This document shows, piece by piece, positions 291-58,601 of a stretch of 64,000 nucleotides of DNA. The notes under the pieces are model-generated. The model had not been told where the DNA came from and did no database searches. It saw only the letters and a list, made by a program, of their open reading frames with translations. This stretch comes from Eledone cirrhosa (lineage: Eukaryota), in contig OZ024749.1 of assembly GCA_964016885.1 (NCBI GenBank), forward strand, positions 10,912,001-10,976,000, written 5' to 3'. Made by a program: the position numbers and the translations under genes. The number at the start of each line of letters is the position of its first letter. The first letter of the stretch is position 1.

Positions 291-677
291 GTAGGAGGTG
301 AGTTTTATTGTAGTACAATAAAGCAATGCAGATATCGGATAAGAAGCACTCTACAATTTGTGGGACTGGAGTATGCATAATATAAGATCAAAAGATGGTT
401 AAAGGAGTTCCATATATTTTATTATGCGCATTTCAAAAACAAACATCATCAAGCAATAATATTTGTGTTTTCATCAGATAAAACAGGAGAACATGATATG
501 AAGGCTAAAAAAAGACTTGTTGATAGTGCAGTTTTAAATCAACATATGTTGATTTAAAACTGCACTATCAACAAGTGTTTTTTTAGCCTTCATATCATGT
601 TCTCCTGATGTTTGTTTTTGAAATGCGCATAATAAAATATATGGAACTCCTTTAACCATCTTTTGATCTTATATTAT
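291..677 (-). mobile_element. Fold-back PLE 3'-end unit (family P1): palindrome 377-545/546-677 plus tail 291-376, flanked by TA repeats
   Basis: Arms are reverse complements around AACAT|ATGTT with no spacer. The left arm has 37 extra nt and contains a hammerhead motif. Confidence 0.7.
417..483 (-). ncRNA. Type I hammerhead ribozyme motif
   Basis: Minus strand reads UUUUAU-CUGAUGA-(about 16 bp stem II)-GAAA-UGCGCA-UA-AUAAAA. Stem I is 6 bp and stem III is the palindrome AUGCGCAU. Confidence 0.8.
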
Positions 678-1138
678 ATATCTATATATATATATACATA
701 TATGTGTGTATATATAGATAGATACATATATATGTGTATATATAGATAGATACATATATATGTGTATATATAGATAGATACATATATATGTGTATATATA
801 GATAGATACATATATATGTGTATATATAGATAGATACATATATATGTGTATATATAGATAGATACATATATATGTGTATATATAGATAGATACATATATA
901 TGTGTATATATAGATAGATACATATATATGTGTATATATAGATAGATACATATATATGTGTATATATAGATATATACATATATATGTGTATATATAGATA
1001 TATACATATATGTGTATATATAGATATATACATATATATGTGTATATATAGATAGATAGATACATATATATGTGTATATATAGATAGATACATATATATG
1101 TGTATATATAGATAGATACATATATATGTGTATATATA
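678..1138. repeat. 28-bp TA-derived minisatellite (gatacatatatatgtgtatatatagata)n
   Basis: Period of 28 visible, e.g. units starting at 721 and 749. Confidence 0.95.
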
Positions 1139-2775
1139 GCATAATTCAGCAGTAGGTCCCGATAGGTTCCCTGCTTGTGTCTTGAAGGCGTGTCAACACC
1201 AACTTGCATCTCCTCTTGCCAATCTGTGGCGGAACTCACTGGATGCTGGATATGTGCCAGAAAACCTTCTATCCCAGTCTGTTGTCCCAGTTTTCAAAAA
1301 GGGAAACAAATCCCTTGCCGTGAATTACCGTCCAATCTCACTCACCTCTCATATCATTAAGGTATTTGAGAGAGTGGTGAGATCGCGAATGACCCACTTC
1401 CTTGAGAGTAACAATATGCTGAACTCCAACCAGCATGGATTCCGTAATGGAAGGGATTGCCTGATGCAGCTACTGCATCACTTTGATGACATTTTGAGAA
1501 CCTTGGGAGAGGGTTCCAACACTGATGTTATCTACCTTGATTTCAGCAAGGCCTTTGACAGGGTTGATCATAACATTCTACTGAGAAAGCTGTCCAATAT
1601 TGGTGTCACTGGAAAGCTGCTGCAGTGGATCAAGAGCTTCCTGTCAAACAGAACCCAACATGTTGTAGTTGAGGGAGTCAAATCCAGCCCAGCCAAAGTC
1701 AGTAGTGGGGTCCCACAAGGCACTGTGTTGGGCCCACTTCTCTTCATCATCTATATTAATGACATCACTGACATCATCAAACACAGCAACATTAAAATTT
1801 TCGCTGATGATTCCAAGCTCCAAAAGGTCATCAATGGCGTGGATGACCGGATAAGCCTTCAGTCAGACCTACTGGCTGTTACCCAATGGGCGGAAAAGAA
1901 CAACATGTTACTGAACGAAGACAAATTCGAACTGATCCACTTTGGAAAAGAGGATGCTCTGAAACTCCCGTACTCCCTTCCCTCCGGGGAAACTCTCGTG
2001 GCATCTAACAACATCAGAGACTTGGGAGTAACCGTGGACAGCAACATAAGCTGGACCACGCATATAAGCAGCAAAGTTGACATGGCCCGCAGAATGTGTT
2101 CCTGGATCCTCAGAACCTTCCAGTCGAGAGATTCCCGCACCATTATCCTTCTCTTCTCTACTTTTGCCCGACCACACCTTGAATACTGTTGTCCACTGTG
2201 GTCTCCCCACACGAAACAAAGTATCATGAAACTTGAAGCTCCTCAAAGGGCAATCACGAAAAAGATAGATGGCATGTCAGACCTTGACTACTGGGGTCGA
2301 TTAGAAAACCTGAAACTTTACTCACTCCAACGTCGCCGTGAGCGTTATATTATCTGCATGATGTGGAAAATGTTCCATCATCACTGCCCAAATGATGTTG
2401 GCATCGCCTTCAAGATACACCCAAGGCTTGGGCCCCGTGCTATCCGTCCCATTCAAAAATCTAAATCGCAACTCATAACAACAATACGGCACAATTATTT
2501 CACCTCAATCGGCCCTGCTCTCTTCAACATCACACCAGGACACGTCAAAACAGAAACTGACCACACAAAATTCAAGAAGTCTTTGGACAAATTCCTCCAA
2601 GTAATCCCGGACAAACCACCCACACCCGGATATGTCTCCGCAAACAGTAATTCTCTTCTCGAATGGGCCATGGTGCCCAAATCCTGAATTGAAAGACTTC
2701 GCCAGGTGGTGCTATTAAGTTAGACATGGCCTGGGCCAATACTGGCCAAAACATTTCAAAGTTATTCAAAGTTAT
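1139..2775 (+). mobile_element. 5'-truncated CR1-like LINE
   Basis: RT ORF, short 3' UTR and (TTCAAAGTTA)2 tail. Near-identical copies at 22343 and 48727. Confidence 0.9.
1182..2687 (+). CDS. Reverse transcriptase of CR1-like LINE (ORF2 C-terminal part, uninterrupted, no native start)
   Basis: Motifs [51 protein letters not shown]. Confidence 0.9.
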
Positions 2776-4049
2776 ACATATATATGTGTATATATAGATA
2801 TATACATATATATAGATAGATACATATATACGTATATATAGATAGATACATATATATGTATATATAGAAAGATTTTAAGAAAAAATATATTAAAGCTACT
2901 AACAGAATATTTATAGGAATGTATGTATATAATTGTATTTGCAAGGGTGTAGAGAGAATGAAATAATTATATTTAATTATATATTTTGGAAGTATTTATA
3001 ATATAATGTGTGAATTAAATGTGTTAAAGTGAGAGAATATTAATTTAAAATGTGAAAGGTATCTTGCATTTGTATATATGATTGGGTCTATTCCACTGGT
3101 GTGTTTTAATGTTATGAAGATTGTAGTTATAAGTATATTTTATTATAAGAGGTTAGTTGTATATATATAAATAGTTTACCAATATATATAAATAATTTAC
3201 CAATCCTAATTCGACTCATTTGCAATTATGCAAACAAGCCTCATTTTTAAAGCCATGTCAGTAGAATGAGGCCCTCATTCTTGCTCTTGTGTTGGCATGT
3301 TTGTAAAGTTGGTTAATTTTTTTATGTTATATTTTTCATATTGACTGTTAACGTGCGTTTTAGGCGTTCGGCTTGTGTTTTGTTTAGTAGTAAATTATTT
3401 ACTTGTTTTAATATGTTTACCGTATATATTTTGAAGGAAACAGTGTTTTAGGAAGTGAATTTGTTCTGTTGTTATTGAAGTTTTTATATAACAGAAAACT
3501 GAAAAAAAAAAAAAGAAAATCAACGATCTTTACATACAGAAACTCGTTAATATTAAGGAAATTCAAAATCTCACCACACCAAACGAGATAAATAAACTCA
3601 TGAACATCATTCGACATGAAACAAAATATGCTGAAAACGAATGCAATAAACATTTCAATAAGAAATTAAGATGGATGAAGGAGAAAAAACAACAAGAAAA
3701 GAGAAAAGAAAACTTACAAAAATATCCTGACAAAATCGACAATATCTGTATGACAGATGTCATATTACCTACAGAACTTACCAAAGACCAGACACTAAAT
3801 ATCTATGGTAACACTATAACCAGTGAACAAGAACAACAAATTCTACAACTTTCACCAAAATTCACAATTTATAACAAGATAAATTCAGTAGAATGCATGA
3901 GAGATAGAAAAATCTTTTACGAAAATACGTTGGAATGCGAAAATAAATAACAACAATAATAACAAAAGTAGTAATATAAACAATAACTTTGACTATAGAA
4001 ATAACAGCTATAACAATAATAGTCATAACAATAGCAGGAGAGAGGAAAA

Positions 4050-4232
4050 TAATAATTGTTTCTACTTTTGGCACAAGGCCAGCAATAACCCAGTGTATTA
4101 CTGGTACTTTATTTTATCGACCCCGTAAGGATGAAAGGCAAAGTTAACCTCGGTGGGATTTGAACTCAGACCATCAAGGGCCGTAACTCTATGCGTCAAA
4201 GCATAGCGTCCGATCCTCTACCGATACTAGCC
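4050..4232 (-). mobile_element. tRNA-derived SINE family S2 (Nin/Deu-like domain)
   Basis: B-box GAGTTCAAATC and body GCCTTTCATCCTTACGGGGTCGATAAAA. Many copies in the window. Confidence 0.8.
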
Positions 4233-4942
4233 ACAAGGGCCGACATGTAGGGTACAATACAAAGACAGGGACAGTGGGGTTTACAGTAAGGTCGAGTAAA
4301 AGTGCACAATGGCAAGACTAATTTAACAATGAAGATATAAAAAATATAAAATAAACTATGCATAAATTTAACAAAATAAATTCCCCTATAGGGGGTGGAT
4401 GACCCATGGATGACTCAGGTACCCCACCAATCCTGAACCACCCTACACTTCTAGGGCACCCAGGGAGAGCACCCCTCTCCTCAAGTTAGCTAGCCTATAG
4501 GCGCATGGTCAGAGTAGGCCCATTCACACAGGCCATTCTCGCCACATTCATCCACCTTTTAGCAAATGTACTGGGGAGCAGCACTTCTCTCTCCACCCTC
4601 ACCTTCCTTTCCAGGTGAAACTTGAAGAAATTGATGAGAAAAGTGTCCATCTTCAGTCCTTTTAATCTGGTCCACCATATAACCTCTTTCGCAACGGCCA
4701 CCAGACAGAGGAAAATTACCTGCTCTTCCTGACCTAAGGAAGGCGGCGGGTCGATCTTCACTATGGACTCAGCCGGATCCGTTCCACACACGACAGTAGC
4801 TGTTTGACATAACTCCACAAGTCAGTAATGCATGGACATTGGACAAGTGCATGCAGAACGGTTTCATTGCTCTGTGCGCATCTTGGGCAGGTCCGTCTAA
4901 CAGCACTTGCATGCCTGTAGAGTTTATCCCGAACCGGCAGCA
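4229..4942 (-). mobile_element. Tx1/L1-clade LINE 3' fragment
   Basis: LPVRDKL..CPRC..ETVLHALVQC (CCHC knuckle). Homologous to 51460-52925 and 10165-10480. Confidence 0.8.
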
Positions 4943-6876
4943 ACTACAGGATCTCCTACTTCCTCTCTATGATTATGCGCCCCATAATTAAGATGTCCCC
5001 AGATATATGTGACAGCACAGAGGTCCTCCTCAGCCTAATCAATGAATGCAACAAAAACAAAACTAACTGCATAATAGGCAGTATGGATGTAGTATCACTG
5101 TACCCATCCATTAACATTGATTTTGCTGTGGAAAAATGTGTGGAAATAATCACTGAAAGCCAAGTGGAGTTCTGCGACGTCGACACAGATGAACTGGGCC
5201 TCCTACTTAGACTTACTTATGACACCGAGTACCTAGATAACCATGACCTTAGCTGTTTATGCCCCAGTAAACCCATAAGAGGTAGACCCCCCACCATAAC
5301 CACAATGGCTAAACAGACTCCCATGGGAAGATGGAATAGATAGACCAAGCCATACGGACACCCAAAAACAATGATGAGGTGAGAAAAATGGTTGCACATA
5401 GGGGCTAATATTAAAACTACCCTAAAGGGCCATATGTTTAAATTTAATGAAAAGATCTACATCCAGAATGAGGGAGCAGCCATTGGCATAGCTGGTGATG
5501 TTGCCAATCTATTTATGGTATGGTGGGAGAGGAGACTCAGAACTCCTTGAAGAGAGCTCCATAGACCTCGTCATGTACTCTCGTTATGTAGACGATATTT
5601 ATATAGTTATAAGAACACCCCCACAAGAGAGGACTAATAAACATGATTTAGAAAATAGCACAATGGAGAGCATCCAGCAGAAAGCTAACTCCATACACCA
5701 GAGTATAACTGTAACTGTTGACTACCCTTCCAAACACCCTAAGAATAGACTACCTGTATTAGATATGGAACTCTGGATTTACACTATAGACGAGAGGGCC
5801 CAAATTCTCCACTCATACTATACTAAACCCATGGCCTTCAATTACCTGATACTCAAAAACTCAGCAATGTCCAATAGTGCTAAGTTTAATATTCTGATCG
5901 CAGACTTGGTAAGAGTAATGAAGAATGTGTCCCGCATGTGCGACCCAACTGAACTGGAAAGACACATCCAACACTTCATCAACCACATGTAGTTCTCTGG
6001 CTACAACCAAAGAGACAGATTCAGAGTATACAAAGGAGCCACGGAGAAGTATAAGACCCTCATAGAAATGGACATGAAAGGAATTTGCCCATTATACAGG
6101 AGCAAATCATGGAATAGCTTAGATAGGACTAAACATAAGATAGGGTAAGCCACTTCATGGTATGACAACCAAAGATACCAGAGTGTCATGTTCGTGGATG
6201 CTACTCCTGGAGGGAAATTCACTAACCTATGTAGAAAGACCCATTTAAAGATTAAAGTGGGAGAAAAACCAGGAACTACCATAAAATCCCTGATCAGCAA
6301 AACATACCCCATTTAAGAAATGTGTTATATGTAAAATGAACCTCCAGATAAACTGTAACACTAGAAATGTAGTCTGACATAAGATGTACCGAGGGTACTT
6401 GCAGAAACATGACAATAACATACATAGGTGAGACAGCTCAAAGCATAGGAGAAAGAATAGACCAACACTGGTTCGGTACTATATGAACACACCAGCCAAA
6501 GACATGATGGTAAAATAGACAACATGGAAATGACTAAACAGGTAGGCAAGTCAGAGCAGCAACTGAGATAGAGCTAAGAAGACCAAAGTTAAACAGAAAA
6601 AATGAATGGAATAACAACCATAACCAAACAAACAATACTGACTTAAGGGAAATATAAATAAATAAATAAATACACAAGTCCAATAACAACAAACACATAT
6701 AAACACACACTAGTAAACAAAGATAAAATACAAAAACAAAAACACATACACTCAGACGCGAACACACACTCCAAACATTATACACTAACGCAGAGACGGA
6801 GACAAGAAGAAATAAATAAATAAAATTAAAATGCCGTAGACATTACAATACAATACAATAGGAGGAAACATAATAG

Positions 6877-6920
6877 TACCACTGATGATGTTGCAGATGT
6901 GCAACGAAAGAACTTTGATA
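6877..6920 (+). ncRNA. Type I hammerhead ribozyme motif in PLE 3' UTR
   Basis: UACCA-CUGAUGA-U-GUUGCA(GAUG)UGCAAC-GAAA-GAAC-UU-UGAUA. One mismatch in stem I. Confidence 0.7.
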
Positions 6921-7152
6921 GACTATATATATATATATCTGTATTTTTAACCGTTGGTCAATCAATGATGAACATTGATTGCCAAATATATTAACTATGG
7001 AGATATAAAAGATACAGAAGCGAAAACCAACCAAACAGTGAGTGTGTTCTGTTATTATTTCTGGCAATATTATTACAACAATATGACCCTCCCCAAGTAT
7101 AACAATATTTGTTTTGACACACGATTTCATATCAAAGACCTTGCATAACAAG

Positions 7153-7374
7153 TATATATATATATATGTGTGTCTGTGTATATATATATGTGTGTATATA
7201 TATATACATATATATATATATGTATATACATATATGTGTGTATATATATATATATATATGTGTGTATATATATATGTGTGTGTGTATATATATATGTGTA
7301 TATATATATGTGTGTGTGTATATATATATGTGTGTATATATATATATATATGTGTGTATATATATATATATGTG

Positions 7375-7405
<31 letters not shown>

Positions 7406-7467
7406 ATATATATATGTGTGTGTGTGTATATATATATGTGTGTATATATGTGTGTATATATATTTAT
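7153..7467. repeat. (TA)n(TG)m compound microsatellite
   Basis: Direct inspection. Confidence 0.95.
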
Positions 7468-8072
7468 GTCAGGTCACCAGTTGGTGCTACTGGTAACATG
7501 TACCCCAGTACAAACTGTCTCATGGTCGGGTCGTTGGCGACTAAACTGGCAACCCCACCAAGGTTTCTTGGTGAGGAGGGTGACTTTGGACATCCTGCAC
7601 GACTAAAAACAAAACCTGTCAAAGGGCAAAGGAGCTGTTAAGAGTCAATGGCCATCCAAAATCACCGGGAGAGATGACCCCTTAGCCTTTGTCAAGGCAG
7701 AATTCTAGGAGAAGGAAAACTCTGATATAACACCTGCAACCCTGATGGTATCCAATGATGTTGACTTGTTCTTCTTTTTGGTAAATATCATCTTGGTTAA
7801 GAGAGTGGGACTGGCTTTGTGCAGTGCCTTTGCTCACTATAAAAGCTTCACGGCACAGGCATTGCTTTATATCTGGAGATCTCTCTGCACTTGTCGTCAC
7901 ATGGTACCATGGGCCCAGCACTATGTGTCAATAATTGTCACAAGTGTAGTGTTTGTACCAGAGTTTTCAAGTCGCTGGCTGGACTAAAAAGTCACACTCG
8001 TTCAGCGCATCGGTAAGGGTTCTACATGGATATAAAGGGTGGCCGTACTCGAAAACGAGTTGGCAGCCACCA
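7468..8072 (+). mobile_element. Probable internally deleted (bipartite) RTE derivative
   Basis: The 5' part resembles RTE 5' UTRs (CTAGGAGAAGGAAAACTCTGA) and recurs at 32034. The 3' part encodes a C2H2 finger [23 protein letters not shown] (7945-8016) and an RTE-type terminus. Confidence 0.55.
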
Positions 8073-8126
8073 TATATATATATATATGTATGTATATATA
8101 TATATATATATATGTGTGTATATATA

Positions 8127-8169
<43 letters not shown>

Positions 8170-8564
8170 ATATATATGTGTATATATGTGTGTGTATATA
8201 TATGTGTGTGTATATATATGTGTGAGTATATGTGTGTATATATATGTGTATATATGTGTATATGTATATATGTGTGTGTATATGTATATATGTGTGTATA
8301 TATATATATGTATATATGTGTGTATATATGTGTGTATATATGTGTGTGTATATATGTGTGTATATATATATGTATATATGTGTGTATATATATATATGTG
8401 TATATATATATATATATGTATATATGTGTGTATATATATATATGTGTATATATATATATATATGTATATATGTGTGTATATATATATATATGTATATATG
8501 TGTGTATATATATATGTATATATGTGTGTATATATATATGTATATATGTGTGTATATATATATA

Positions 8565-8597
<33 letters not shown>

Positions 8598-8632
8598 GTG
8601 TGTATATATATATGTGTGTATATATATATATA

Positions 8633-8663
<31 letters not shown>

Positions 8664-9816: not shown

Positions 9817-9856
<40 letters not shown>

Positions 9857-9860
9857 GTAT
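8073..9860. repeat. Two (TA)n(TG)m arrays separated by a T-rich tract and a 40-bp RTE 3' tip (9200-9241)
   Basis: Direct inspection. The tip TGGCCATACTCGATAACGAGGGGCAGCCATCA matches 8040-8072. Confidence 0.9.
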
Positions 9861-10908: not shown

Positions 10909-10936
10909 TATATATGTATGTATATATATATGTATG

Positions 10937-42765: not shown

Positions 42766-43335
42766 CTAATGGATACGGTTTAAACTACCAGAACTTTTAG
42801 GTCTATAATAGAAGAAAGAATTAGAAATGGCATGTGGACAGAAAGAAAATATTTCAGATTTTCTATTAAGCAATATGTTCCTAGAGAAAATTATAGAGTG
42901 GGTCTCTAGGATACAAAGATTACAGAATTTAGTGTGTGTTGATAGGTGATTAGATTGTGCTACCATACGCCAATTTAGGCTATATGGTATACCAGCCCCT
43001 TTTAAATCCCAGATATGGTGTGCCAAAGAAGTAGAGTTCTTAAACTTGATATGCTTAAAATTAGAAATATGTGAATTAAACCTAGTTTTAAAAGTATTAG
43101 ATGTGGAGCCTATATATGTTCTACAAGAAGAATTAGTCTTAACTTCACATGCATAAACAATATTCCTAGAGAGGCAGTGACCATTTAAAGGGCAGTTATT
43201 ACTTAATCTACAGTTACACTTCCATGTACTAGTGACTAGCTGATTACGCGATGCATTATTCCTAGGGTTATTATAAGATAAGATCTGCTCGGGTGGTAAG
43301 TTATTAATAGAGCTATCTAGATTAGTGGTACGCAA
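42766..43335 (-). CDS. GIY-YIG endonuclease domain of a PLE (5'-truncated)
   Basis: CNCR..CPL..CL..NIVY..TYIGST..FKTRF..H..HIW..CNLC..E..LLN. Confidence 0.8.
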   Translation of the reverse strand: MRTTNLDSSINNLPPEQILSYNNPRNNASRNQLVTSTWKCNCRLSNNCPLNGHCLSRNIVYACEVKTNSSCRTYIGSTSNTFKTRFNSHISNFKHIKFKNSTSLAHHIWDLKGAGIPYSLNWRMVAQSNHLSTHTKFCNLCILETHSIIFSRNILLNRKSEIFSFCPHAISNSFFYYRPKSSGSLNRIH

Positions 43336-43407
43336 AGAGGAGTATATCTATATATATGTATATATATATATCTATATATATGTTATTAATAGAGCTATCT
43401 AGATTAA

Positions 43408-45208
43408 TTAAAATTAATCGACCAGGTCATGAAGGTCACGGAAAAAGTAATAGCGCAACTAATCAGAGAGAGAATTGACCTAGATGAAATGCAGTTCGGG
43501 TTTGTGTCAGGCAAAAGTACCACAGACGCTCTTTTCATAGTACGACAACTACAGGAGAAGTACCTAGCTAAAAGTAAACCCCTCTACTTAGCTTTTGTCG
43601 ACTTGGAGAAAGCCTTCGACAGAGTCCCCCGCTCCATTATCTGGTGGGCTCTTAGAAAACTAGGCGTTGACGAATGGCTTGTGAGGGCTATACAAGCGAT
43701 GTATAAAGAAACAGTCAGCAAGGTTAGAATTAACAACGAATATAGTGAAGAGTTTAACGTAAAAGTTGGCGTCCATCAGGGCTCTGTTCTCAGCCCACTA
43801 CTATTTATTATTGCCCTTCAGGCTATAACAGAGGAGTTCAAGACAGGCTGCCCATGGGAACTCCTATACGCAGACGACCTGACACTCATAGCGGAATCAA
43901 TGGCCGAGCTAGAGAAGAAATTCCAAACATGGAAGCACGGCCTAGAGTCAAAAGGACTTAAAATTAACCTGGCTAAGACCAAAGTACTAGTTTGTAGGAA
44001 AGAAAACAAGGCGGCGGTCCCTTCTGGGAAATGGTCGTGCTCGGTGTGTAGGAAAGGCGTAGGTAGAAACTCCATTTTATGTCCTAAATGCAAAGTATGG
44101 GTGCATAAAAGATGTAGTGGGATCACAGGTAAGCTAACTAAGAACATAGATTTTACATGTGGCCGGTGCTCTGGTGCAATAAGTAGCAGCAAGTGCCCAC
44201 AAACTACTAGCTCTTTCAATTGCGCAGAGGGTTCTATAGAAATAGTGGACAGCTTCCGTTACCTGGGCGATAAAATCAGCAGTGGGGGAGGGTGCTCTGA
44301 AAGTACTGTAGCTAGAGTCAGAACTGGTTGGAAAAAGTTCAGAGAGCTTATACCACTATTAGCTGCTAAAGGGTTCTCACTAAAAATGAAAGGCAGGTTG
44401 TACGATGCCTGCATACGAACAGCAATGCTGCATGGCAGTGAGACCTGGGCATTGTGTGCAGAGGATATACGCAGACTAGAGAGGAACGAAGCTTGCATGC
44501 TCCGCTGGATGTGTAACAGTAATATACGTGAACGGCAAAGCATAAACGAACTAAGGAAAAAATTAGAGATAAGAGGGATCAGATGTTGTTTACTCGAGAG
44601 AAGGCTACGTTGGTATGGACACGTGATGCGCATGAAAGTCGATAGCTGTATAACAAAGTGCAGGGCAATAAAGATAGACGGTAGTCACGGAATAGGCAGA
44701 CCTAGAAAAACCTGGGACGAGCTGATAAACTCCGACATCACACACTTACACCTCTCCAAGACAATGTCACTGGACCGAGACCTTTGGCGGTACTCAGTAA
44801 CAGAGAAGACCCGCCTTACCTAAATATATAGTAAAACCTACTCCAGCCAGTAGGCATCTCTAACAAAATACACCCCGTCCCACCACCCCCACCCCCACCC
44901 CATCCACACCACCCCGTTCTATGTAAAGTTATGTTGGTGCCGCGCCATCGAGGCCAAAACAAATGAGATCGTGTAGGTGTCACGACAAAAAAACACACAG
45001 TCCACGCTGTAATGTGGCCGTGTAGGCAACACGGTAAAAACCTCCCAGACCCACACTGTAAATGTGGTTGGTGTTAGGAAGGGCATCCAACTGTAGAAAA
45101 CCTGCCAGACAGTCCTATGCGAGCAAGACAATCACTCTTGCCTCAAGTGGGACTACCCCCGTCCAAACCCATGCAAGCGTGGAACACGGACGTTAAACGT
45201 TGATGATG

Positions 45209-45212
<4 letters not shown>
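43408..45212 (+). mobile_element. Young 5'-truncated RTE family B
   Basis: Uninterrupted ORF, full 3' UTR and (GAT)n tail. Confidence 0.92.
43429..44823 (+). CDS. RTE reverse transcriptase with C4HC3 Cys-rich insert
   Basis: QFGF, FVDLEKAFD, GVHQGSVLSP, YADD, CSVC..CPKC..HKRC..CGRC, FRYLG. Confidence 0.9.
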   Translation: MKVTEKVIAQLIRERIDLDEMQFGFVSGKSTTDALFIVRQLQEKYLAKSKPLYLAFVDLEKAFDRVPRSIIWWALRKLGVDEWLVRAIQAMYKETVSKVRINNEYSEEFNVKVGVHQGSVLSPLLFIIALQAITEEFKTGCPWELLYADDLTLIAESMAELEKKFQTWKHGLESKGLKINLAKTKVLVCRKENKAAVPSGKWSCSVCRKGVGRNSILCPKCKVWVHKRCSGITGKLTKNIDFTCGRCSGAISSSKCPQTTSSFNCAEGSIEIVDSFRYLGDKISSGGGCSESTVARVRTGWKKFRELIPLLAAKGFSLKMKGRLYDACIRTAMLHGSETWALCAEDIRRLERNEACMLRWMCNSNIRERQSINELRKKLEIRGIRCCLLERRLRWYGHVMRMKVDSCITKCRAIKIDGSHGIGRPRKTWDELINSDITHLHLSKTMSLDRDLWRYSVTEKTRLT

Positions 45213-45253
<41 letters not shown>

Positions 45254-45414
45254 CTATATATATGTATATATATCTATATATATGTATATATATATCTATA
45301 TATATGTATATATATCTATATATATGTATATATATCTATATATATGTATATATATCTATATATATGTGTATATATATATATATGTGTATATATATATATA
45401 TGTGTATATATATG

Positions 45415-45451
<37 letters not shown>

Positions 45452-45596
45452 GTGTATACATATATATATGTATATATATCTATATATGTATATATCTATA
45501 TATATGTATATATAAATGTATATATATCTATATATATCTATATATATATGTATATATATCTATATATATGTATATATATATGTATATATATCTATA

Positions 45597-45639
<43 letters not shown>

Positions 45640-45719
45640 ATATCTATATATATATATATATATATATCTATATATATATATATATATATATATATTTAGA
45701 TATATATATATATATTTAG

Positions 45720-45769
<50 letters not shown>

Positions 45770-45855
45770 CTATATATATGTATATATCTATATATATACA
45801 TATATAGATATATACATATATAGATATATACATATATAGATATATACATATATAG

Positions 45856-45887
<32 letters not shown>

Positions 45888-45952
45888 CTATATATATGTA
45901 TATATCTATATATATACATATATAGATATATACATATATAGATATATATATA

Positions 45953-45983
<31 letters not shown>

Positions 45984-46055
45984 CTATATATATGTATATA
46001 TCTATATATATACATATATAGATATATACATATATAGATATATATATATATATAG

Positions 46056-46087
<32 letters not shown>

Positions 46088-46292
46088 CTATATATATGTA
46101 TATATCTATATATATACATATATAGATATATACATAGATAGATATATATATATATGTATATATATATCTATATATATGTATATATCTATATATATACATA
46201 TATAGATATATACATATATAGATATATATATATACATATATATATATCTATATATATGTATATATCTATATATATGTATATATATCTATATA
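45213..46292. repeat. TA-derived array with mixed CTAT/GATA polarity
   Basis: Direct inspection. Confidence 0.95.
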
Positions 46293-46840
46293 TCATCATC
46301 ATCATCATCATCATCAACGTATAACGTCCGTGTTCCACGCTTGCATGGGTTTGGACGGGGGTAGTCCCACTTGAGGCAAGAGTGATTGTCTTGCTCGCTT
46401 AGGACTGTCTGGCAGATTTTCTACAGTTGGATGCCCTTCCTAACACCAACCATATTTACAGTGTGGGTCTGGGAGGTTTTTACCGTGTTGCCTACACGGC
46501 CACATTACAGCGTGGACTGTGTGTTTTTTTGTCGTGACACCTACACGATCTCATTTGTTTCGGCCTGGATGGCGCGGCACCAACATAACTTTACATAGAA
46601 CGGGGTGATGGCGGGACGGGGTGTATTTTGTTAGAGATGCCTACTGGCAAGGCGGGTCTTCTCTGTTACTGAGTACCGCCAAAGGTCTCGGTCCAGTGAC
46701 ATTGTCTTGGAGAGGTGTAAGTGTGTGAGGTCGGAGTTTATCAGCTCGTCCCAGGTTTTTCTAGGTCTGCCTATTCCGTGGCTACCGTCTATCTTTATTG
46801 CCCTGCACTTTGTTATACAGCTATCGACTTTCATGCGCAT
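46293..46840 (-). mobile_element. RTE family B 3' fragment
   Basis: Reverse complement of 44626-45212 with a small UTR deletion. Confidence 0.9.
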
Positions 46841-48726
<1,886 letters not shown>

Positions 48727-49668
48727 ATAACTTTGAAATGTTTTGGCCAGTATTGGCCCAGGCCATGTCTAACTTAATAGCACCACCTGGCGAAGTCTTT
48801 CAATTCAGGATTTGGGCACCATGGCCCATTCGAGAAGAGAATTACTGTTTGCGGAGACATATCCGGGTGTGGGTGGTTTGTCCGGGATTACTTGGAGGAA
48901 TTTGTCCAAAGACTTCTTGAATTTTGTGTGGTCAGTTTCTGTTTTGACGTGTCCTGGTGTGATGTTGAAGAGAGCAGGGCCGATTGAGGTGAAATAATTG
49001 TGCCGTATTGTTGTTATGAGTTGCGATTTAGATTTTTGAATGGGACGGATAGCACGGGGCCCAAGCCTTGGGTGTATCTTGAAGGCGATGCCAACATCAT
49101 TTGGGCAGTGATGATGGAACATTTTCCACATCATGCAGATAATATAACGCTCACGGCGACGTTGGAGTGAGTAAAGTTTCAGGTTTTCTAATCGACCCCA
49201 GTAGTCAAGGTCTGACATGCCATCTATCTTTTTCGTGATTGCCCTTTGAGGAGCTTCAAGTTTCATGATACTTTGTTTCGTGTGGGGAGACCACAGTAGA
49301 CAACAGTATTCAAGGTGTGGTCGGGCGAAAGTAGAGAAGAGAAGGATAATGGTGCGGGAATCTCTCGACTGGAAGGTTCTGAGGATCCAGGAACACATTC
49401 TGCGGGCCATGTCAACTTTGCTGCTTATATGCGTGGTCCAGCTTATGTTGCTGTCCACGGTTACTCCCAAGTCTCTGATGTTGTTAGATGCCACGAGAGT
49501 TTCCCCGGAGGGAAGGGAGTACGGGAGTTTCAGAGCATCCGCTTTTCCAAAGTGGATCAGTTCGAATTTGTCTTCGTTCAGTAACATGTTGTTCTTTTCT
49601 GCCCATTGGGTAACAACCAGTAGGTCTGACTGAAGGCTTATCCGGTCATCCACGCCATTGATGACCTT
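48727..49668 (-). mobile_element. CR1-like LINE 3' fragment (ORF 48805-49653)
   Basis: Nearly identical to 1824-2765. Confidence 0.92.
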
Positions 49669-50416: not shown

Positions 50417-50472
<56 letters not shown>

Positions 50473-50552
50473 CATATGTATATATATATATATATCTATA
50501 TATATATATGTATATATATATGTATATATATATATATCTATATATATATATG

Positions 50553-50586
<34 letters not shown>

Positions 50587-50598
50587 TCTATATATATG

Positions 50599-50637
<39 letters not shown>
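49669..50637. repeat. TA-derived minisatellite (CTAT/GTAT/CTTT)
   Basis: Direct inspection. Confidence 0.95.
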
Positions 50638-50638
<1 letters not shown>

Positions 50639-50939
50639 AGCATTAACTTTGGACGGTCTTTCTTTCTGACTCTGTCCTTCACTTATTGTTTTTAAGAGAA
50701 CTTTTGATTGCTTCATATGACAAATAGTTCATACATTATGAAGCTTTTGATATTTTGCTTTTGATCACTTTGAAACATGCAGCTTCTTATTGAAGAACAG
50801 AAGGCATGTTTTTCTCCTTTATAAATGCCCAGTCGGCAACTGTACCTTGTGATTCTTGTGATTCTAGTGATTGCAGCTTTAGTGGAATCATCATTAAGTC
50901 TATTCTATTCTATCACATTTGCACATAAAGTTAATGCAG

Positions 50940-51240
50940 ATGGAAAGGAAAAGATGGAAAGAATTAAATGAAAAAGAAAATAAATGAAAGAAAGATTGAT
51001 GGAAAGAAAGAAAGATTGAAAGAGTATTTGAAAGAAAGGGAAGAAAGAAATTTTGAAGTAAAGATTGAAAGAAAGTTATAAAGAATAAGGAAGGAATGAC
51101 TGAAAGAAAACTATAAAATAGAAAGTTATACAGAAAGAATGAAAGAAAGAAAGTTTGAAATAAGGTTTTAAAGAAAGAAACAAAAAAGCAACATTGAAAG
51201 AAACATTAAAAAAAATAAAGAAAGACTAATAAAAATCTAG
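50940..51240. repeat. Degenerate (GAAA)n polypurine tract
   Basis: Direct inspection. Confidence 0.8.
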
Positions 51241-51247
51241 AGATAAA

Positions 51248-51430
51248 TAATAATTGTTTCTACTTTAGGCACAATTACCCAGTGCATTACTGGTACTTTA
51301 TTTTATCGACCCCGTAAGGATGAAAGGCAAAGTCAACCTTGGCGGGATTTGAACTCAGACCATACAGGGAGGTAACTCTATGCTTCAAAGCATGGCATCC
51401 AACCCTCTACCGATACTGTCAATCCACCAC
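51248..51430 (-). mobile_element. S2 SINE
   Basis: Matches other S2 copies. Confidence 0.8.
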
Positions 51431-51459
51431 CCTAGAGATAAATAATAATAGTAATAATT

Positions 51460-52925
51460 ATTATTTCTTTTTTGGCCACAAGGGCCGACATCATCATCAT
51501 CATCATCATTTTACGTCCGCTTTTCCCTGCTTGCAAGGGTGGGAGGGGTCCTATTCAGCACAGCATCTCTCCACTTATCACGGTCCTTCATCATCTCCTC
51601 GGTGAGCTTCAGCGATCTGAGGTCTACTCTCACCACCTCCGTGCATGTTTTCCATGGTCTTCCTCTACTGCGTCTTCCTTCTACTGGGATTTCTTGGCAC
51701 TTCTTTACCATATAGGGGGCAATACAATAGACAGGGACAGTGAGGCTTTACCTATATAATGTATAAACAATATAAATAACAATAAAAATGCAAACAACAG
51801 AGTTCTCCAGAGGTGACTCAGGTACCACACCAATACTAAACCACCTGATGCACTTCTCTCTCCACCCTCACCTTCCTTTGCAAGTGAAACTTGAAAAAGT
51901 TGAGGAATTGGCTGAAGAGAAAAGTGTTAGTCTTCAGTCCTTTCCACCTGGTCCACTTTACAACTTCTTTCACTACTGCCACCAAACACAGGAAAATTGC
52001 CCGCCCTTCCCGCCCAAAAGAAGGTGGCGGGGCAGTCTTCACTATGGACTCGCTGTTTGACATAATTCCATTAGTCAGTAATGCATGGACACTGGACGAG
52101 TGCATGCAGAACAGTTTTGTTGTTCTGTGTGCATCTTGGGCAGATCCGTCTGACAGCATTTCCATGCCTGTAGAGTTTATCTTGAATGTGCAGTGCCTCT
52201 TGGAAGCACTGCCAAGCAAGGGATTTCTGGAGGTTGTCCATAGTTCCTGACTCAAAATTCCTCCTGGTCAGTTCAACTTGGTCAGTTCAACTTGGTCAAT
52301 TCAACTGGTCAGTTCAACTTGGTCAATGCTCAGAGCCTCTCTAAGTGCGTTATCGCACTTGCCCACCACTAATCCTCTATAGAACTCAAGAGTGGAAGTT
52401 CCACTGACTGCATTGACTGCCTGGTAGAGGGCAGTGAGTGCCTGGCAACATTCCAGATGCCAGTCACCCAGTTTCAGTCTCTTCTTGACCCACGACTCCA
52501 GCTCAGTCAAAGAGATGAGCTGTGGAAAGGCCTGCCTGACAGACAGTGACCGCACCTGTTCACCGTTTAAGCAGAATATCTTGAGATGCTGCAGCCTCAG
52601 CACATGTTTGTGCATCATTAGCCACGGCATGCCTAGCCCTCTGTGAAGAGGGTGCTGGCAGCAGATGAACCACCTCACCAATGGAACTTGTCCCCTCCAC
52701 AAGAAGTTGAAGAGAGGAGCCATTCCAATTTGACGAAGCGCAAATGGAGGCAAGGCTCGACGGTCAGGCAGTAGTAGAGGACGAACACGGTGTACGCATT
52801 CACCACCTCCACCTGACCTTTCAGAGACAGCTTACTCTTGGTCCATTTCTGGGTGAGTGTGGCTACCCTGATTGTACCCTCTTCCCAATTCTTATCCACA
52901 ATGGACGACACAAAAAGACAGTGAC
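51460..52925 (-). mobile_element. Tx1/L1-clade fragment with an RTE family C insert (51489-51710) in its 3' UTR
   Basis: LSLKGQVEVVN, FNFLWRG, GLGMP motifs. Homologous to 4229-4942. Confidence 0.8.
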
Positions 52926-53075
52926 AGAACAATAATTATAGCAAAGGCAACATGACCCAAACCAGTAATGACCACAACTATGTTATAATAATTTCTCTAC
53001 TGTCCAATCAAAGTAACATAAGGACTTCCCTCAAAGTAGTAGATATATTTTCTCCAAAGGAAAAGTTGTTTATAA

Positions 53076-53803
53076 TAATGATGGTGGTGATGGTGATGGT
53101 GGTGATGATGGTGATGGTGGTGATGGTGATGGTGATGGTGGTGATGGTGGTAGTGATGGTGGTGGTGGTGGTAGTGATGATGGTGGTGGTGGAGGTAGTG
53201 ATGATTGTGATTGTGATGGTGGTGATGATGGTGATGGTGGTGGTAGTGATGATGGTGATGGTGATAGTGATGGTGGTGATGGTGGTGATGATGATGATGG
53301 TGGTGGTGATAGTGATGGTGGTGGTGATAGTGATGGTGGTGGTAGTGATGATGGTGATGGTGATAGTGATGGTGGTGATGATGGTGGTGATGGTGATGGT
53401 GGTGATAGTGATGGTGGTGGTAGTGATGATAGTGATGGTGATAGTGGTGGTGGTGGTGGTGGTAGTGGTGATGGTGATGGTGATGGTGATGGTGGTGGTA
53501 GTGATGATGGTGATGGTGGTGGTGGTGGTGGTGGTGGTAGTGATGATGGTGATGGTGGTGGTGGTGATGATGGTGATGATGGTGGTGGTGGTGGTGATGG
53601 TGATGGTGATGATGGTGATGATGGTGGTGGTAGTGATGATGGTGATGGTGGTGATGGTGGTGGTGATGGTGATGGTGGTGGTGGTGGTAGTGATGGTGGT
53701 GATGGTGGTGGTGATGATGGTGATGATGGTGGTGGTGATGGTGATGGTGGTGGTGGTGGTAGTGATGGTGGTGATGAGTTCAATAGTGATGATGGTGATA
53801 ATG
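53076..53803. repeat. (GGT/GAT/AGT)n trinucleotide array
   Basis: Direct inspection. Confidence 0.95.
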
Positions 53804-53811
53804 ATTTCTTT

Positions 53812-54007
53812 ATAATAATTGTTTCTACTTTTGGCACAAGGCCAGCAATTACCCCAGTGCATTACTGGTACTTTATTTTATTGACCCCCGTAAGGATGAA
53901 AGGCAAAGTTAACCTCGGCGGGATTTGAACTCAGACCATAAAGGGCCGTAACTCTATGCTGCAAAGCATGGCGTCTGACCCTCTGCCGATACTGCCAATC
54001 CACCGCC
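53812..54007 (-). mobile_element. S2 SINE, full length
   Basis: tRNA-like head GGCGGTGGATTGGCAG, B-box and Nin-like body. Confidence 0.85.
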
Positions 54008-54202
54008 ATAATAATAACAGTAGTGTCAACATTTAAATACTAGGTTTGAATACTTTACTTCATATCTGTCCTTTCATGGAATCCAGTTGACCTTTTCATC
54101 CCTTTGGTGTTGATAAATAATACTGGGGTTTGATTCCTCTTCTATTTCTGTCTTTTTCTGGAGTCCACTTTAGGAAAAACTGCCTTTGAAATTTTCTAAT
54201 AT

Positions 54203-55482
54203 TAGAGAAGAATAAGCCACTATACTTAGCTTTTGTTGACCTAGAGAAGGCCTTTGATAGGGTACCCTGATCTGTCATCTGGTGGTCCTTAAGGAAACTA
54301 GAGGTAGAGGAATGGCTTGTGAGGACAGTGCAAGCTATGTACAGGGGTGCTGTCAGTAAAGTGAGAATAGGAATGGAGTTTAGTGAGGAATTCCAGATAC
54401 AAGTAGGTGTACATCAAGGTTCGGTCCTCAGCCCACTCTTGTTCATTTGTTCTTATAGTCCTCCAAGCCATAACGGAGGAGTTTAAGACTGGATGCCCAT
54501 GGGAACTTCTCTATGCTGACGATCTGGTTCTTATAGCAGAATCAGTAGAGGAGCTAGAGAATAAATTCTTGCTATGAAAACTGCAGTTGGAATCAAGAGG
54601 CCTGAGAGTGAACATAGCTAAAACAAGTGTTGATAAGTAGAAGAGAGGACAATACTCTGATTCCATCAGGGAAATGGCCATGTTTGATATGTAGGAAAGG
54701 AACTGGCATAAATTCCATAAAATGTACGCAATGCAGATCTTGGGTACAAAAGAGATGTAGTGGAATAGCAGGCAAACTAACAGGTAGGGAAAACTAGCAG
54801 TAGTAATCGATGTGATAGACTCATTTTTCCAATGCAGGTGGGTTCTATAGAAGTGGTTGATAGCTTCCAGTACCTAGGTGATCAGATTAGCATGGGAGGG
54901 GGGTGTTCCGAGGCCATAGTATCTAGAAGAAGGATGGGTTGGAAGAAGTTTAGGGAGATGTTTCCTCTGTTGACAAAGAAGGGTTTCTCCCTGCATACGA
55001 AAGGACAGTTATATGATGCCTGTGTGAGATACGTGATGCTGCATCATAATGAGACATGGGCAGCAACTGCAGAAGATATGCGATGGCTGGAAAGAAATGA
55101 AGCAAGTATGTTCCGTTGGATGTGCAATGTCAATGTGCATGAATGACCAAGCATAGACGAGTTGAGAAAGAAACTGGGTATAAGAGGGATAAGTTGTGGT
55201 GTGCAGGTGAGAAGGCTGAGATGGTATGGACATGTGATGCGCATAGAGGGTGACCGATGGACGAAGAAGTGCCAGGAAGTCCCAGTTGAGGGAAGATGCA
55301 ATAGAGGTAGACCACGAAAAATATGGGCGGAGGTGGTGAAAGCAGACCTCAGATCGTTGAAACTCACCGAGGAGATGACGAAGGACTGTGACGGGTGGAG
55401 AGATGCTGTGCTGAATAGGACCCATCCAACCCTTGCAAGCAGGGAAAAGCAGACGTAAAATGAGGATGATGATGATGATGAT
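54203..55482 (+). mobile_element. RTE family C, decayed
   Basis: [25 protein letters not shown]. Tail present. Confidence 0.9.
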
Positions 55483-56540
55483 GGTTCATTTTAACTCAAC
55501 AGAAAGACTCTATATTGTGGTTGGTGTGTATAAAGGGAGGAGGTGATGTTTCTCCCCAAATTAGTGGAAGTGATATAATCTCAATCAGGGATTTAACCCT
55601 TTCATTATATTTCTAATGGAAGGCACTGATTATGATTTTCAATCATTTTGAAAATAATCAAGAATTGGTCATGGTGGGGGTCATTTAGTAATTTAACCAA
55701 AATTATAATTAGCATGGTTATGTTTGGAACATAACTTAAGAAAGATTCTTGCATAAAATTATGATGTAAGATTTTTAGATAAATATAAACATTTTATGAT
55801 AAAGAGTTTTGTATTTGCGAATGAGGGTCAGCTTCAAGTAATATAATACAGTTTGGTATGTGAGAACCATTGTCAGGTAGTATAAGGCAGTCTTGTAATA
55901 TCATGAGCTCATTGAGGGTTGTGTTGAACATGACTCACTTTCAATATTTAGCAATATCACTGAGAGTGTTCTTCAGTTAAATTTAATAACTGATTTAATA
56001 TAACATCTTATTTTTTAATATTTATAATTCTATTTTCTGGATGCTGGAACTGTGTGACATAAATGGTAAGAAGACAACAACATCAAAATATGACAAAATT
56101 TTGAGAAATCGAAATATTTCAATATTTAAATAAATATTAACGATTTATATTTACATTTGATGAAGAGAAATATGAAAAAAAGAAAGTCAAAATGAAACAA
56201 AAACAAAATTATATTTTATTTTAAAATATTAATTTCTGAATAAAGTAGTTTCAGTTGAAAGATGAAATAGGATTGAGAGAGAAGAGAATTAATGAGATAG
56301 TGACAATGAAACAATAAAGAAATCAGAGAGGTGTGAGAAAATGAGAGAGGGATGAGAGAATTGGTGATAGAGAGAATAGAGATAAATAGATAGGTAAACA
56401 GATAGATGGATAGATAAGAGGGTGAGAGAAATAAAGATCAGTGACATTCAGAAATAAGAGATTGATTGTTAGGGGAGATTGTATATGTATGTGTGTATAT
56501 ATATATTTGTATGTATGTATAAATAAATATATATATATAT

Positions 56541-56737
56541 ATAGGAACCAGTAAGACCCCGACAGCTGAGCTCAAGCCGTTTCGACGGCTAATTCTGGAC
56601 TCCAGAATTAGCCGTCGAAACGGCTTGAGCTCAGCTGTCGGGGTCTTACTGGTTCCTATTACCCACTCTACTACCCCAAGTATTGAGTACTTTGGTGCGT
56701 TATGGTCCACCTGGTTCCTTACCACATTTCCTTCGTT
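56541..56737 (+). mobile_element. Fold-back unit family P4, copy 2 (59-bp arms 56541-56599/56601-56659, tail 56660-56737)
   Basis: Perfect hairpin. Reverse complement of 14764-14960. Confidence 0.75.
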
Positions 56738-56760
56738 ATATATATATATATATATATATA

Positions 56761-56899
56761 AACAAAGAAGGTGTAGTAAGATACCAGGTGGACCATAACA
56801 CACCAGAGTACTCGATACTTAGGGTAGTAGAGTGGGTAATAGGAAAAGAGTCAGGACCCCAACGACTGAGCTCCATCTGTTTCAACAGCTAGATTCCTA
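56761..56899 (-). mobile_element. Diverged P4 relative without inverted arm
   Basis: Shares CCAGGTGGACCATAAC and GGTAGTAGAGTGGGTAATAGGAA. Confidence 0.65.
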
Positions 56900-57039
56900 T
56901 GTATGTATGTATGTATGTATGTATGTATGTATGTATGTATGTATGTATGTATGTATGTATGTATAAATATGTATGTATGTATGTATGTATAAATATGTAT
57001 ATATGTATGTATAAATATGTATGTATGTGTATGTATAAA

Positions 57040-58010
57040 CACATATTTGGTGCTAAAACTGGATACATAAGAAATGAACTTGCGTGTACCCGGAATAAAT
57101 GTAGCAAGAGAGAGGACCAGATCACCCACACTGCACACTTTATAGATGTACTGAAGACGAACGGATACCCAACATCCACAATGAATCAACTTAAGAATCA
57201 AAGGTGCTGCAGACATAAGACCTCCTCTAACACCTACTTCATGAAATTACCACATTTCAGCAAAAGCATAGCCATAGCTATCCGCAAAGAAGGACTGGAC
57301 ATACAGTTAGCACACTCTGGCCCTTCACTGCGTGGGTACCTGTCTAAAAAGCAATCCAGAGACAACAACATTCAGTGCTTGTTGACTAACTGCTCTATCC
57401 GCGATACAGCTATGTGCCAGCGGACACATGTGGTATACCGGATTGAATGCAACAAATGTAAGGAGTTCTACATTGGTAGCACGTCTCGAGCACTCCACAC
57501 TCGCATTAAAGAAAACATCAACACACGCGTATCCTCATTAAAAAAAAAAAAAATTGACAAATGTAGAAACATCAACCAACATATTACCGTTACCATTAAA
57601 GCCAATGATAGAAATGTGGGCAACTTAAGAATTAAGGAAGCCTTGCTCATATGTACACTCAACCCACAAATAATAATAGATTAGAACTCAGCACACAGTA
57701 CTTGACATAAGAAGACACACCCACAGGCACACAAACTAAACATCTTATACAAAAAGGAAAATTGATTTCGTGAAATACTATATTGGCAATTGACGCCATT
57801 CACGTAGAAAGCGAAGTAACCATCGAAAAAACGCTTGAAAACAAACTTAGAAAAAATTTAAATCAAAATCAAAGTTTTATCCCAAAGGGAGGAAATTGAA
57901 AACCACTGAAGGTTTCTTAAATCCTGATGAAGGGACTTTTAGGCCCCGCAATATTGGACAGATAAAAGAACAACAAACCAAAGATTTCCCGGTAACTTTT
58001 ACTTTTTGTT
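57040..58010 (+). mobile_element. Penelope-like element 3' fragment (GIY-YIG) with degenerate hammerhead at about 57921-57957
   Basis: LKTNGYP..C..C..VVYRIECNKCKEFYIGSTSRALHTRIKE..IKEALLI..NPQI. CTGATGA...GCAA downstream. Confidence 0.8.
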
Positions 58011-58237
58011 ACCTCATCTTACAGTCCATTTTGCATTGTTTAGCCTTCTATCTCTTTCAACGTTATATATTACTAGACCACTCATGAACCGTTGGGTCTC
58101 GTTCACTTCAAAATATTTTTTTTAAATCATGTTAACTTAAAAATAATTTTTAAATAATTAAAATATACACAGACATGTTTATAATGTGAAATGAAACTCG
58201 AAGGCCATATATATATTTATATATATATATATTTATA

Positions 58238-58601
58238 TGGAGGAAGTTATAGTTCACTTGAAGCATTGTGTAATGAAGTATAAACGTTTGTATTTGTAAA
58301 GCCAAAACAATGCAGGTATGGACATAGAATAAAAATGCAAATGCAAAAGATATTGTTGACAATTATTCTTTTACCTTAGATTTATTTAAATGTCCTTAAT
58401 TTTCGAGATAATATCTCTTCTTCGGAGGGAAGTAAAGTGGTTAAACCAGTGTTCACGAAGAAGAGATATTATCTAGAAAATTAAGGACATTTAAATAAAT
58501 CTAAGGTAAAAGAATAATTGTCAACAATATCTTTTGCATTTGCATTTTTATTCTATGTCCATACCTGCATTGTTTTGGCTTTACAAATACAAACATTTAT
58601 A
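58238..58601 (-). mobile_element. Fold-back PLE-type unit family P6 (146-bp arms 58279-58424/58456-58601, tail 58238-58278)
   Basis: Inverted arms with about 2 mismatches. Degenerate hammerhead 58393-58430. Confidence 0.65.

Follow-up and report, generated by a model that had tools for sequence, protein, structure and literature searches.

The 64,000-nucleotide (nt) stretch analysed here, hereafter the window (G000:C9:10912001-10976000, on contig OZ024749.1 of Eledone cirrhosa), belongs to a 3.0-Gb animal assembly, has a GC content of 32% and consists of (TA)n-type repeat for about 30% of its length. Six short hairpins lie in it, and the question they raise is what made them. A preliminary description of the sequence had left the choice between the standard short integration product of TA-targeting Penelope-like elements (PLEs) and a class of non-autonomous, ribozyme-bearing hairpin retroelements. 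We conclude, with a probability of about 0.8, that the units are short non-coding insertions of five PLE families, made by twin priming from two fixed RNA sites and joined head to head. The interpretation first offered is partly supported: its first option is supported, as each of the five families can be linked to coding sequence of a PLE and the joints between arms are nearly all different, and its second is opposed by the evidence weighed below.

Six hairpin units and their parent elements

All six units (U1 to U6) are real and lie where the preliminary description had placed them. Throughout, positions are numbered in the sense of the element, where site A is the final base of the tail-less arm (position 0) and site B is the end of the tail.

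291..677, minus strand: U1, family F1 (Hydra-type PLE); tail 291-376, tail-bearing arm 377-545, tail-less inverted arm 546-677
14764..14960, minus strand: U2, family F2 (Hydra-type PLE); tail 14764-14841, arm 14842-14901, tail-less arm 14902-14960
21939..22320, plus strand: U3, family F3 (Hydra-type PLE); tail-less arm 21939-22073, 11-nt loop, arm 22085-22219, tail 22220-22320
23105..23510, plus strand: U4, family F4 (Neptune-like PLE by motifs); inverted tail 23105-23158, 46-nt arm 23159-23204
56541..56737, plus strand: U5, family F2; tail-less arm 56541-56600, arm 56601-56659, tail 56660-56737
58238..58601, minus strand: U6, family F6 (PLE with DKG and CCHH motifs); tail 58238-58278, tail-bearing arm from 58279, tail-less arm 58456-58601

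The tails of U1 to U6 measure about 86, 78, 100, 54, 78 and 41 nt, and the arms are nearly or fully identical where this was scored (U3, 135 nt, 100%; U5, 59 nt, 100%; U6, 146 nt, 99%, with an asymmetric turn near 58425-58456). U1 turns at CATATG (543-548), a hot spot of family F1, and its tail-less arm has a 37-nt deletion that takes out the hammerhead core of that arm. The common layout originally given for the six, from (TA)n through tail-less arm, turn, inverted arm and tail to (TA)n again, stands with two departures. U4 is asymmetric, with 46-nt arms flanking a 260-nt loop and the tail on the short arm, the remainder being a 5'-truncated sense copy (23205-23510) that terminates at the tail-less end; the right flank of U2 is (TG)n, starting three bases on. 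The grouping into five sequence families was correct, U2 and U5 (97.8% identical) being of one family.

Matches to exact family patterns across the genome number 11,100 for F1, 7,996 for F2, 1,532 for F3, 6,173 for F4 and 21 for F6, the last a likely undercount from a pattern derived from a single copy. Reversed patterns (24-28 nt) gave 0 matches for each family, so these counts are not due to chance. Only exact patterns were used for counting; the first DNA searches with F3 and F1, which ranked hairpin-shaped or full-span copies first, were excluded.

By sequence, each of the five families leads to predicted reverse transcriptase (RT) and GIY-YIG coding sequence of a PLE elsewhere in the genome. 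Family F1 has its parents in L063/L064 (an 821-residue stop-to-stop frame lies between two pseudo-long terminal repeats, pLTRs, in L064), F2 in L139, with an intact 786-residue frame, and F3 in the frameshifted copies L061 and L062; in all three the same pLTR and tail continue into the open reading frame (ORF). The three frames align with one another at about 40% and carry DKT, RW, CxCX5C, CxxC and CxH motifs and no CCHH, apparently matching the description of the Hydra clade, with RWR or RWT in place of the RWK that is the norm there and pLTR-to-pLTR lengths of 3.1, 3.7 and 4.7 kb. The F4 pLTR lies behind an endonuclease with CX4CxxC and CCHH (Neptune-like by motifs alone), and the F6 pLTR follows an RT that has DKG, with CX4C and an endonuclease that has CCHH, features to be compared with the linker zinc finger and the endonuclease CCHH of the Neptune/Nematis clades. 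Pfam recognised RVT_1 and GIY-YIG in F6, GIY-YIG only in F3, gave weaker matches in F4, and returned no match for the F1 and F2 ORFs. The tail of the hairpins sits at one end and is identical with what comes after the pLTR of a full-length copy; it continues into the element body in full-length F1, F2, F3 and F6 copies and in run-on F4 copies. Further Hydra-type PLE frames, not akin to the five families, occur at L065, L066, L068, L293 and L296, so the genome holds more such families, and at L008, L022, L080, L097, L203 and L234 differing PLE families sit in each other's (TA)n flanks and form chains of stubs.

Fixed outer ends and variable joints

We sampled 219 loci without regard to shape, a small fraction of the totals, by taking the first pattern matches in genome order (F1 50, F2 68, F3 50 and F4 30, all on contig C1, and all 21 of F6), and aligned inverted arms by BLAST. 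A tail-less inverted arm was present within 1.5 kb in 120 of the 219 copies, and 90 copies were 500 nt or shorter (F1 22, F2 49, F3 6, F4 2, F6 11); the stub is the majority form of F2 (49/68). The outer arm end fell at position 0 in F2 (50/52), F4 (12/12) and F6 (13/14), at 0 or -3 in F1 (24/27) and within 0 to -3 in F3 (12/15), and the tail ended within a few bases of the same point in 47/50 F1, 65/68 F2, 46/50 F3, 28/30 F4 and 19/21 F6 copies. Sites A and B are fixed in each family; any target site duplication would be masked by the (TA)n flanks. Across the genome, 7,065 tail-less F2 ends abut TA and 7,996 copies are joined to a tail, near one of each per insertion; the sequence ran past the tail at only 2 of the 68 F2 loci, and sampled units were not arranged in head-to-tail arrays. 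Exceptions to one A end and one B end were seen at L180, L246 and L239, where a tail is on both arms or the inverted arm extends past the tail.

In F1, F2 and F3 an RCTC-N10-17-GAGY motif starts 5-9 nt after A and again after B (6/6 ends) and is probably a binding site for each enzyme copy, a prediction to be read against a variant in one of the two L062 copies, a background of about one occurrence per kb and a minimum-energy stem in only some copies. In F4 both fixed ends lie at the same short motif, AATATCG (window 23152-23165, and L250), a possible counterpart of the motif repeated in F1-F3.

The joints are of a different nature: 48 distinct ones occur among 51 F2 hairpins. The preliminary description had proposed that fixed turn points would indicate a mobile unit and variable ones independent truncation; the turns do vary base by base, yet they cluster against sharp limits. 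Among 97 direct joints, the tail-less arm exceeded its partner by more than 10 nt in 29, and in 6 the sense arm began inside the tail so that the arms did not overlap, a class to which the F2, F4 and F6 patterns, placed at or beside A, are largely blind. Since a cDNA that folds back can copy only what it holds, both observations argue for two separately primed cDNAs; on each target strand, the arm is the cDNA expected if priming occurred from that flank, at A or B. At L139/L140, the full-length side is likewise the tail-less side. A subfamily variant at F2 -23 was common to both arms in 7 hairpins and discordant in 1, which indicates that both arms derive from one template or subfamily. At L039 (G000:C12:31410540-31413793) about 46 nt of antisense F2 tail lie between two F1 arms, which could be read as capture of another family's cDNA or DNA at the joint. 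L119 (F2) and L250/L251 (F4) are partial tandems in which a copy extends about 190 nt past A before a fresh pLTR start (F2 at -63), and look like a template jump from an RNA 5' end.

Of 22 F1 joints, 14 (6 asymmetric) have a tail-less arm that ends at -170/-171. In the genome as a whole 10,870 matches extend to -170, and a hand count of the first 100 gave 44 that stop there and 56 that continue. Both arms of F2 lie within -53 to -64 in 33 of 49 hairpins and none of the 49 extends beyond -64; both arms of F6 lie at -193 to -203 in 5 of 11. The limits, -170 in F1, -64 in F2 and -204 in F6, adjoin the adenine of a TCA, a motif type that occurs 9, 4 and 2 times in the 330 nt examined in F1, F2 and F6. 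They are likely transcription starts, with a TCA that resembles the initiator consensus and may be called initiator-like on that basis. Summed contig depth in run X1, which is not copy number, is about ten times lower upstream of F2 -64 and a few hundred times lower beyond B. Initiator-like motifs have been noted in PLE pLTRs (PMC3846280).

Other origins of the clusters were discarded: a splice acceptor for F2, as ends show no peak at -58, and a palindrome by itself for F1, as asymmetric joints stop there too. An extra base derived from a cap at F1 -170 was also considered, C being next in 13 of 29 non-palindromic stopped arms (hand count), and was dropped as microhomology with internal TATC sites, or a genomic C at -171, accounts for many cases.

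Hammerheads were assigned by motif and fold. The four units reported to contain hammerhead cores, U1, U3, U4 and U6, do so, and of a U3-A8 hammerhead (U3 and A8 being core bases here) only the 3' half remains in U2 and U5. Among 150 of the 458 matches of an Rfam scan, only microRNA-type models and one viral small RNA appeared, none at the gathering score.

417..483, minus strand: F1 minimal type I hammerhead (U1), by motif and fold; core 477-471, palindromic loop III, predicted cut AUA^ between 423/422
21985-22029, minus strand: mirror copy of the F3 hammerhead (U3), by motif and fold
22129..22173, plus strand: F3 minimal hammerhead (U3), by motif and fold; core 22135, predicted cut GUU^ before 22167
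23308-23352, plus strand: F4 hammerhead (U4), by motif scan
56639/56640, plus strand: predicted F2 hammerhead cut GUC^GGGG between these bases (U5), 5' half of the core absent
58394-58428, minus strand: F6 hammerhead variant (U6), CCGAAGA, a U4C variant

The complete F2 hammerhead has a U3-A8 core, a variant described in metazoan PLE hammerheads (PMC4209133), folds with stems I, II and III, and has a predicted cut that leaves -19 as the first base. Both arms end near this cut at 327 F2 loci. We analysed the first 49 of these short-loop loci, 48 parsed by script and one (L346) recognised by eye as a perfect palindrome. Untemplated bases mark the joint in 21 loci; of their 42 arm ends, 30 fell at -19 where a uniform null expects 3.1, against 2, 4, 1 and 3 at -17, -18, -20 and -21; both arms ended at -19 in 12 loci, with a single A or T inserted in 7. 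The other 27 of the 48 comprised 2 blunt joints and 25 with microhomology, with a perfect palindrome in 12 of these. Decay of CpG as the source of the single A or T was rejected, the undecayed 9-nt form occurring in 0 of 48 loci. The -19 joints are likely a genomic record of hammerhead cleavage in vivo. The class is minor (2/68 in the unbiased F2 sample), and the F2 start cluster falls within hammerhead loop II; most F2 transcripts would then lack a full ribozyme, which fits the small size of the class. Evidence for cleavage in vivo is stated to be absent in the available text of Cervera and de la Pena (PMC4209133).

Competing explanations and a proposed model of twin priming

Among the alternatives, an unlikely one accepts the same PLE origin and supposes that one cDNA or antisense template folds back and copies itself. 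Self-copying was suggested from the palindromic joints of rotifer PLEs (Arkhipova 2013, PMC3846280), and perfect palindromic joints are common here as well (CATATG in 15 of the 44 stopped F1 arms; CCCCGGGG and GAGCTC in F2), and subfamily variants are shared between arms. A self-copy is nonetheless limited to the length of its template, in conflict with the longer tail-less arms (29/97) and the arms without overlap (6/97), and the stop at A is left without explanation. Somewhat less probable again is that long inverted copies were later shrunk by deletion of the apex, the clusters of turns then reflecting DNA instability and not RNA ends. Joints at internal palindromes (F1 TGCGCA, 10/50; F2 GAGCTC, 6/48) and the 37-nt deletion in U1 do reveal later deletion or a microhomology bias; against this stand the F1 arms that stop at -170 with a partner starting elsewhere (6 cases), the 12 loci of the F2 -19 class, which have untemplated bases and not microhomology, and the youth of the F2 copies, whose tails are identical at 73-78 of 78 positions in 42 of 48.

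The second option of the preliminary description, non-autonomous ribozyme-bearing hairpins that move as units in the manner of retrozymes, is largely refuted and has a very small probability, despite a very high copy number, a near-uniform F2 length (49/68 at or below 500 nt) and a few recurrent F1 joints. The joints are copy-specific, the ribozyme of the commonest form, that of F2, is without its 5' half, a coding parent exists for each family, and the stem-loop found beyond the tail end of full-length copies is missing from the units; only the 2 F2 loci noted above extend past the tail, and no head-to-tail arrangement was sampled. Head-to-tail tandem units each with a complete hammerhead, which define non-LTR retrozymes, were likewise not what we found, and a miniature inverted-repeat transposable element (MITE) or foldback DNA transposon, with inverted repeats at both termini, a fixed structure and a transposase partner, does not agree with the one-sided tail, the variable joints and the RT partner. 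Least credible of all are chimeras of assembly or library, that is, palindromic reads. Raw reads in X22 and X23 do start at an AATT site (856) that falls inside the F2 turn cluster, and leave the symmetric apex unspanned, their start presumably being a restriction cut. Chimeras would not yield family-specific fixed ends, a one-sided tail, (TA)n on both flanks or arm-specific mutations; in raw reads of two other samples both F2 ends are followed by TA, at 909 in 2,907 and 2,596 reads and at 989 in 7,398 and 8,050, and in a second organism (organism B) one contig switches to the inverted arm at -64 (845). Opposite-strand joints in raw reads are weak, with 1 to 3 read starts each.

Returning to twin priming, the following course of events would account for the units. 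An RT-endonuclease would nick both strands of a (TA)n tract, as both strands are nicked and extended in vitro by the PAc (anole) PLE (PMC11167929). One strand would then be extended from A and the other from B, 40-100 nt further 3', these being the observed ends; in the Hydra-type families the RCTC-N10-17-GAGY motif 5-9 nt after each site would dock each enzyme copy. The cDNAs would often run off the RNA 5' end, A and B being only 60-300 nt from it, and the observed clusters would mark the run-off points at the transcription start (F1 -170, F2 -64 to -54, F6 -204) and, in F2 copies amounting to a few percent, at the position where the hammerhead would cut (-19). Joining of the cDNA ends would follow, either blunt, through short microhomology or with the addition of a few untemplated bases, as seen in the joints; a long copy would require a template that reads through, or else a template jump. 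As stubs end at B, without the second motif, they are likely dead ends. We give an even chance to a fuller version, in which the stubs are strong-stop-like dead ends: a dimeric enzyme on two motif copies would prime both strands and run off at 5' ends made by the promoter or the hammerhead, and full-length copies would arise only after a template jump.

Several observations weigh against this account. The start sites and the cut are putative positions read from genomic joints. F3 and F4 have no sharp turn cluster, their joints (6 and 9) being scattered; the TCA and RCTC/GAGY motifs were spotted post hoc, in families of which F1-F3 are related to each other; and the cap-derived base at F1 -170 is suggestive at most. 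As to the cut, 27 of the 48 F2 short-loop loci, 25 of which show microhomology, have no inserted base and are not exactly placeable. In F1 the cut class is blurred: a hand count of the first 50 of 160 short-loop loci, AT-rich and ambiguous, gave about 14 with an arm at -45/-46 and 10 that join at the loop III palindrome. Frangieh 2024 moreover reports, in the text available, that cleavage is unnecessary in vitro and that RNA-seq ends at the cut were not found in their element (PMC11167929). Lastly, the two arms of F2 hairpins disagree at 21 of 30 variant sites, a difference we read as later mutation.

Neighbouring elements and comparison with known systems

Two PLE copies with coding sequence and a solo arm lie in the same window.

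3490..7152, plus strand: P2, decayed and interrupted PLE, F4 relative (coding about 68%); hammerhead core at 6882, tail then (TA)n at its end
40975..43347, minus strand: P5, 5'-truncated Hydra-type PLE, F3 relative; GIY-YIG frame 42769-43347, pLTR finishing at the tail-less end, 40975
56761..56896, minus strand: solo arm and tail of an F2-related subfamily (81%), by sequence comparison

Two hairpin families had at first been tied to P2 and P5; these are indeed relatives of F4 and F3, and not members of the same families (U4 against P2, 72-81%; U3 against P5, 82-87%). P2 and P5 are also among the insertion places of a 200-nt interspersed repeat, 80-92% alike, found at 4041-4233, 12402-12638, 39742-40166, 41783-41997, 51243-51451 and 53812-54010. 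Copies of long interspersed nuclear element (LINE) type, with an RT followed by a PHD finger (Pfam), occupy 15212-18680, 19926-21438, 32238-36880, 43343-46840 and 54202-55480, and 44626-46840 is itself a fold-back (87%). A 515-residue RT frame (PF00078) at 1140-2873 has a 97% inverted partial copy 46 kb away, at 48621-49668, and 3'-end fragments at 22322-22464.

The layout of the hairpins is published PLE anatomy: insertion units with an inverted truncated copy, a one-sided tail and a (TA)n bias have already been described (PMC8557442). Endonuclease-positive PLE units (Craig et al. 2021, PMC8557442; Arkhipova et al. 2013, PMC3846280) share with ours a 5'-truncated copy with an adjacent inverted 5'-truncated copy, a tail at one end, (TA)n targets, a pLTR hammerhead and TATA- and initiator-like pLTR motifs. 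They differ in tail length (30-40 nt, against 41-100 nt here), the stub is here the majority form of F2, and our joints favour two primed cDNAs over self-priming or resolution by the endonuclease. F1, F2, F3 and P5 share with the Hydra clade (Craig et al. 2021, PMC8557442) the DKT, RW, CxCX5C, CxxC and CxH motifs, hammerheads and (TA)n insertion; that clade has RWK and is generally below 3 kb, whereas the present families, placed by motifs alone, have RWR or RWT, 3.1-4.7 kb and thousands of copies. The PAc Poseidon element (Frangieh et al. 2024, PMC11167929) resembles them in two internal RT starts that bound the tail, in cutting and extension of both strands, in an AT-rich target and in a predicted dimer; in the available text, which does not deal with the inverted joint or with turn points, RNA ends at its ribozyme cut were not found, whereas F2 genomic joints pile up at the cut. 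Metazoan PLE hammerheads (Cervera and de la Pena 2014, PMC4209133) are likewise minimal type I with an extra base before stem II, a palindromic loop III and the U3-A8 variant, and opposite-strand pairs 100-700 bp apart occur in Schistosoma (PMC4209133); the accessible part of that paper maps no joints, as is done here.

Twin priming of L1 (Meyer et al. 2010, PMC2837659) also involves two RT primings on two target strands and an internally joined inverted insertion, although its second priming site varies and yields inversion with deletion, whereas here the starts are fixed and close and yield an inverted duplication with a tail. The R2 ribozyme (PMC3774820) has a cut that coincides with the 5' junction of the inserted copy, and differs in being hepatitis delta virus-like, with a site-specific ribosomal DNA target and a full-length product in place of a stub. 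Non-LTR retrozymes (Li et al. 2026, 10.64898/2026.07.22.740005) are equally small, non-coding, derived from PLE pLTRs and equipped with a type I hammerhead; they form head-to-tail tandems with a complete hammerhead per unit, in contrast to the head-to-head single units described here, in which the ribozyme is often broken. In the literature searched, which covers older papers incompletely, we found no paper that maps turns to RNA ends or argues twin priming for PLEs; the arm asymmetry, the TCA turn clusters and the F2 cut joints were not found in print.

How PLE inverted repeats and tails form and what the hammerhead does are stated to be open in the available text of three papers (PMC8557442, PMC4209133, PMC11167929). 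The added value of these units is mechanistic: their joints argue against self-priming, favour twin priming and likely mark both the start site and an in vivo ribozyme cut. Thousands of independent joints yield base-exact predictions of RNA 5' ends, the cut site and two protein-binding motifs, with the intact L139 frame at hand. For annotation, such stubs are easily mislabelled as MITEs, microRNA hairpins or retrozymes. If the proposed reading is true, the F2 -19 joints would be direct genomic evidence that the minimal hammerhead of a metazoan PLE cuts in vivo and that the cut RNA serves as a template.

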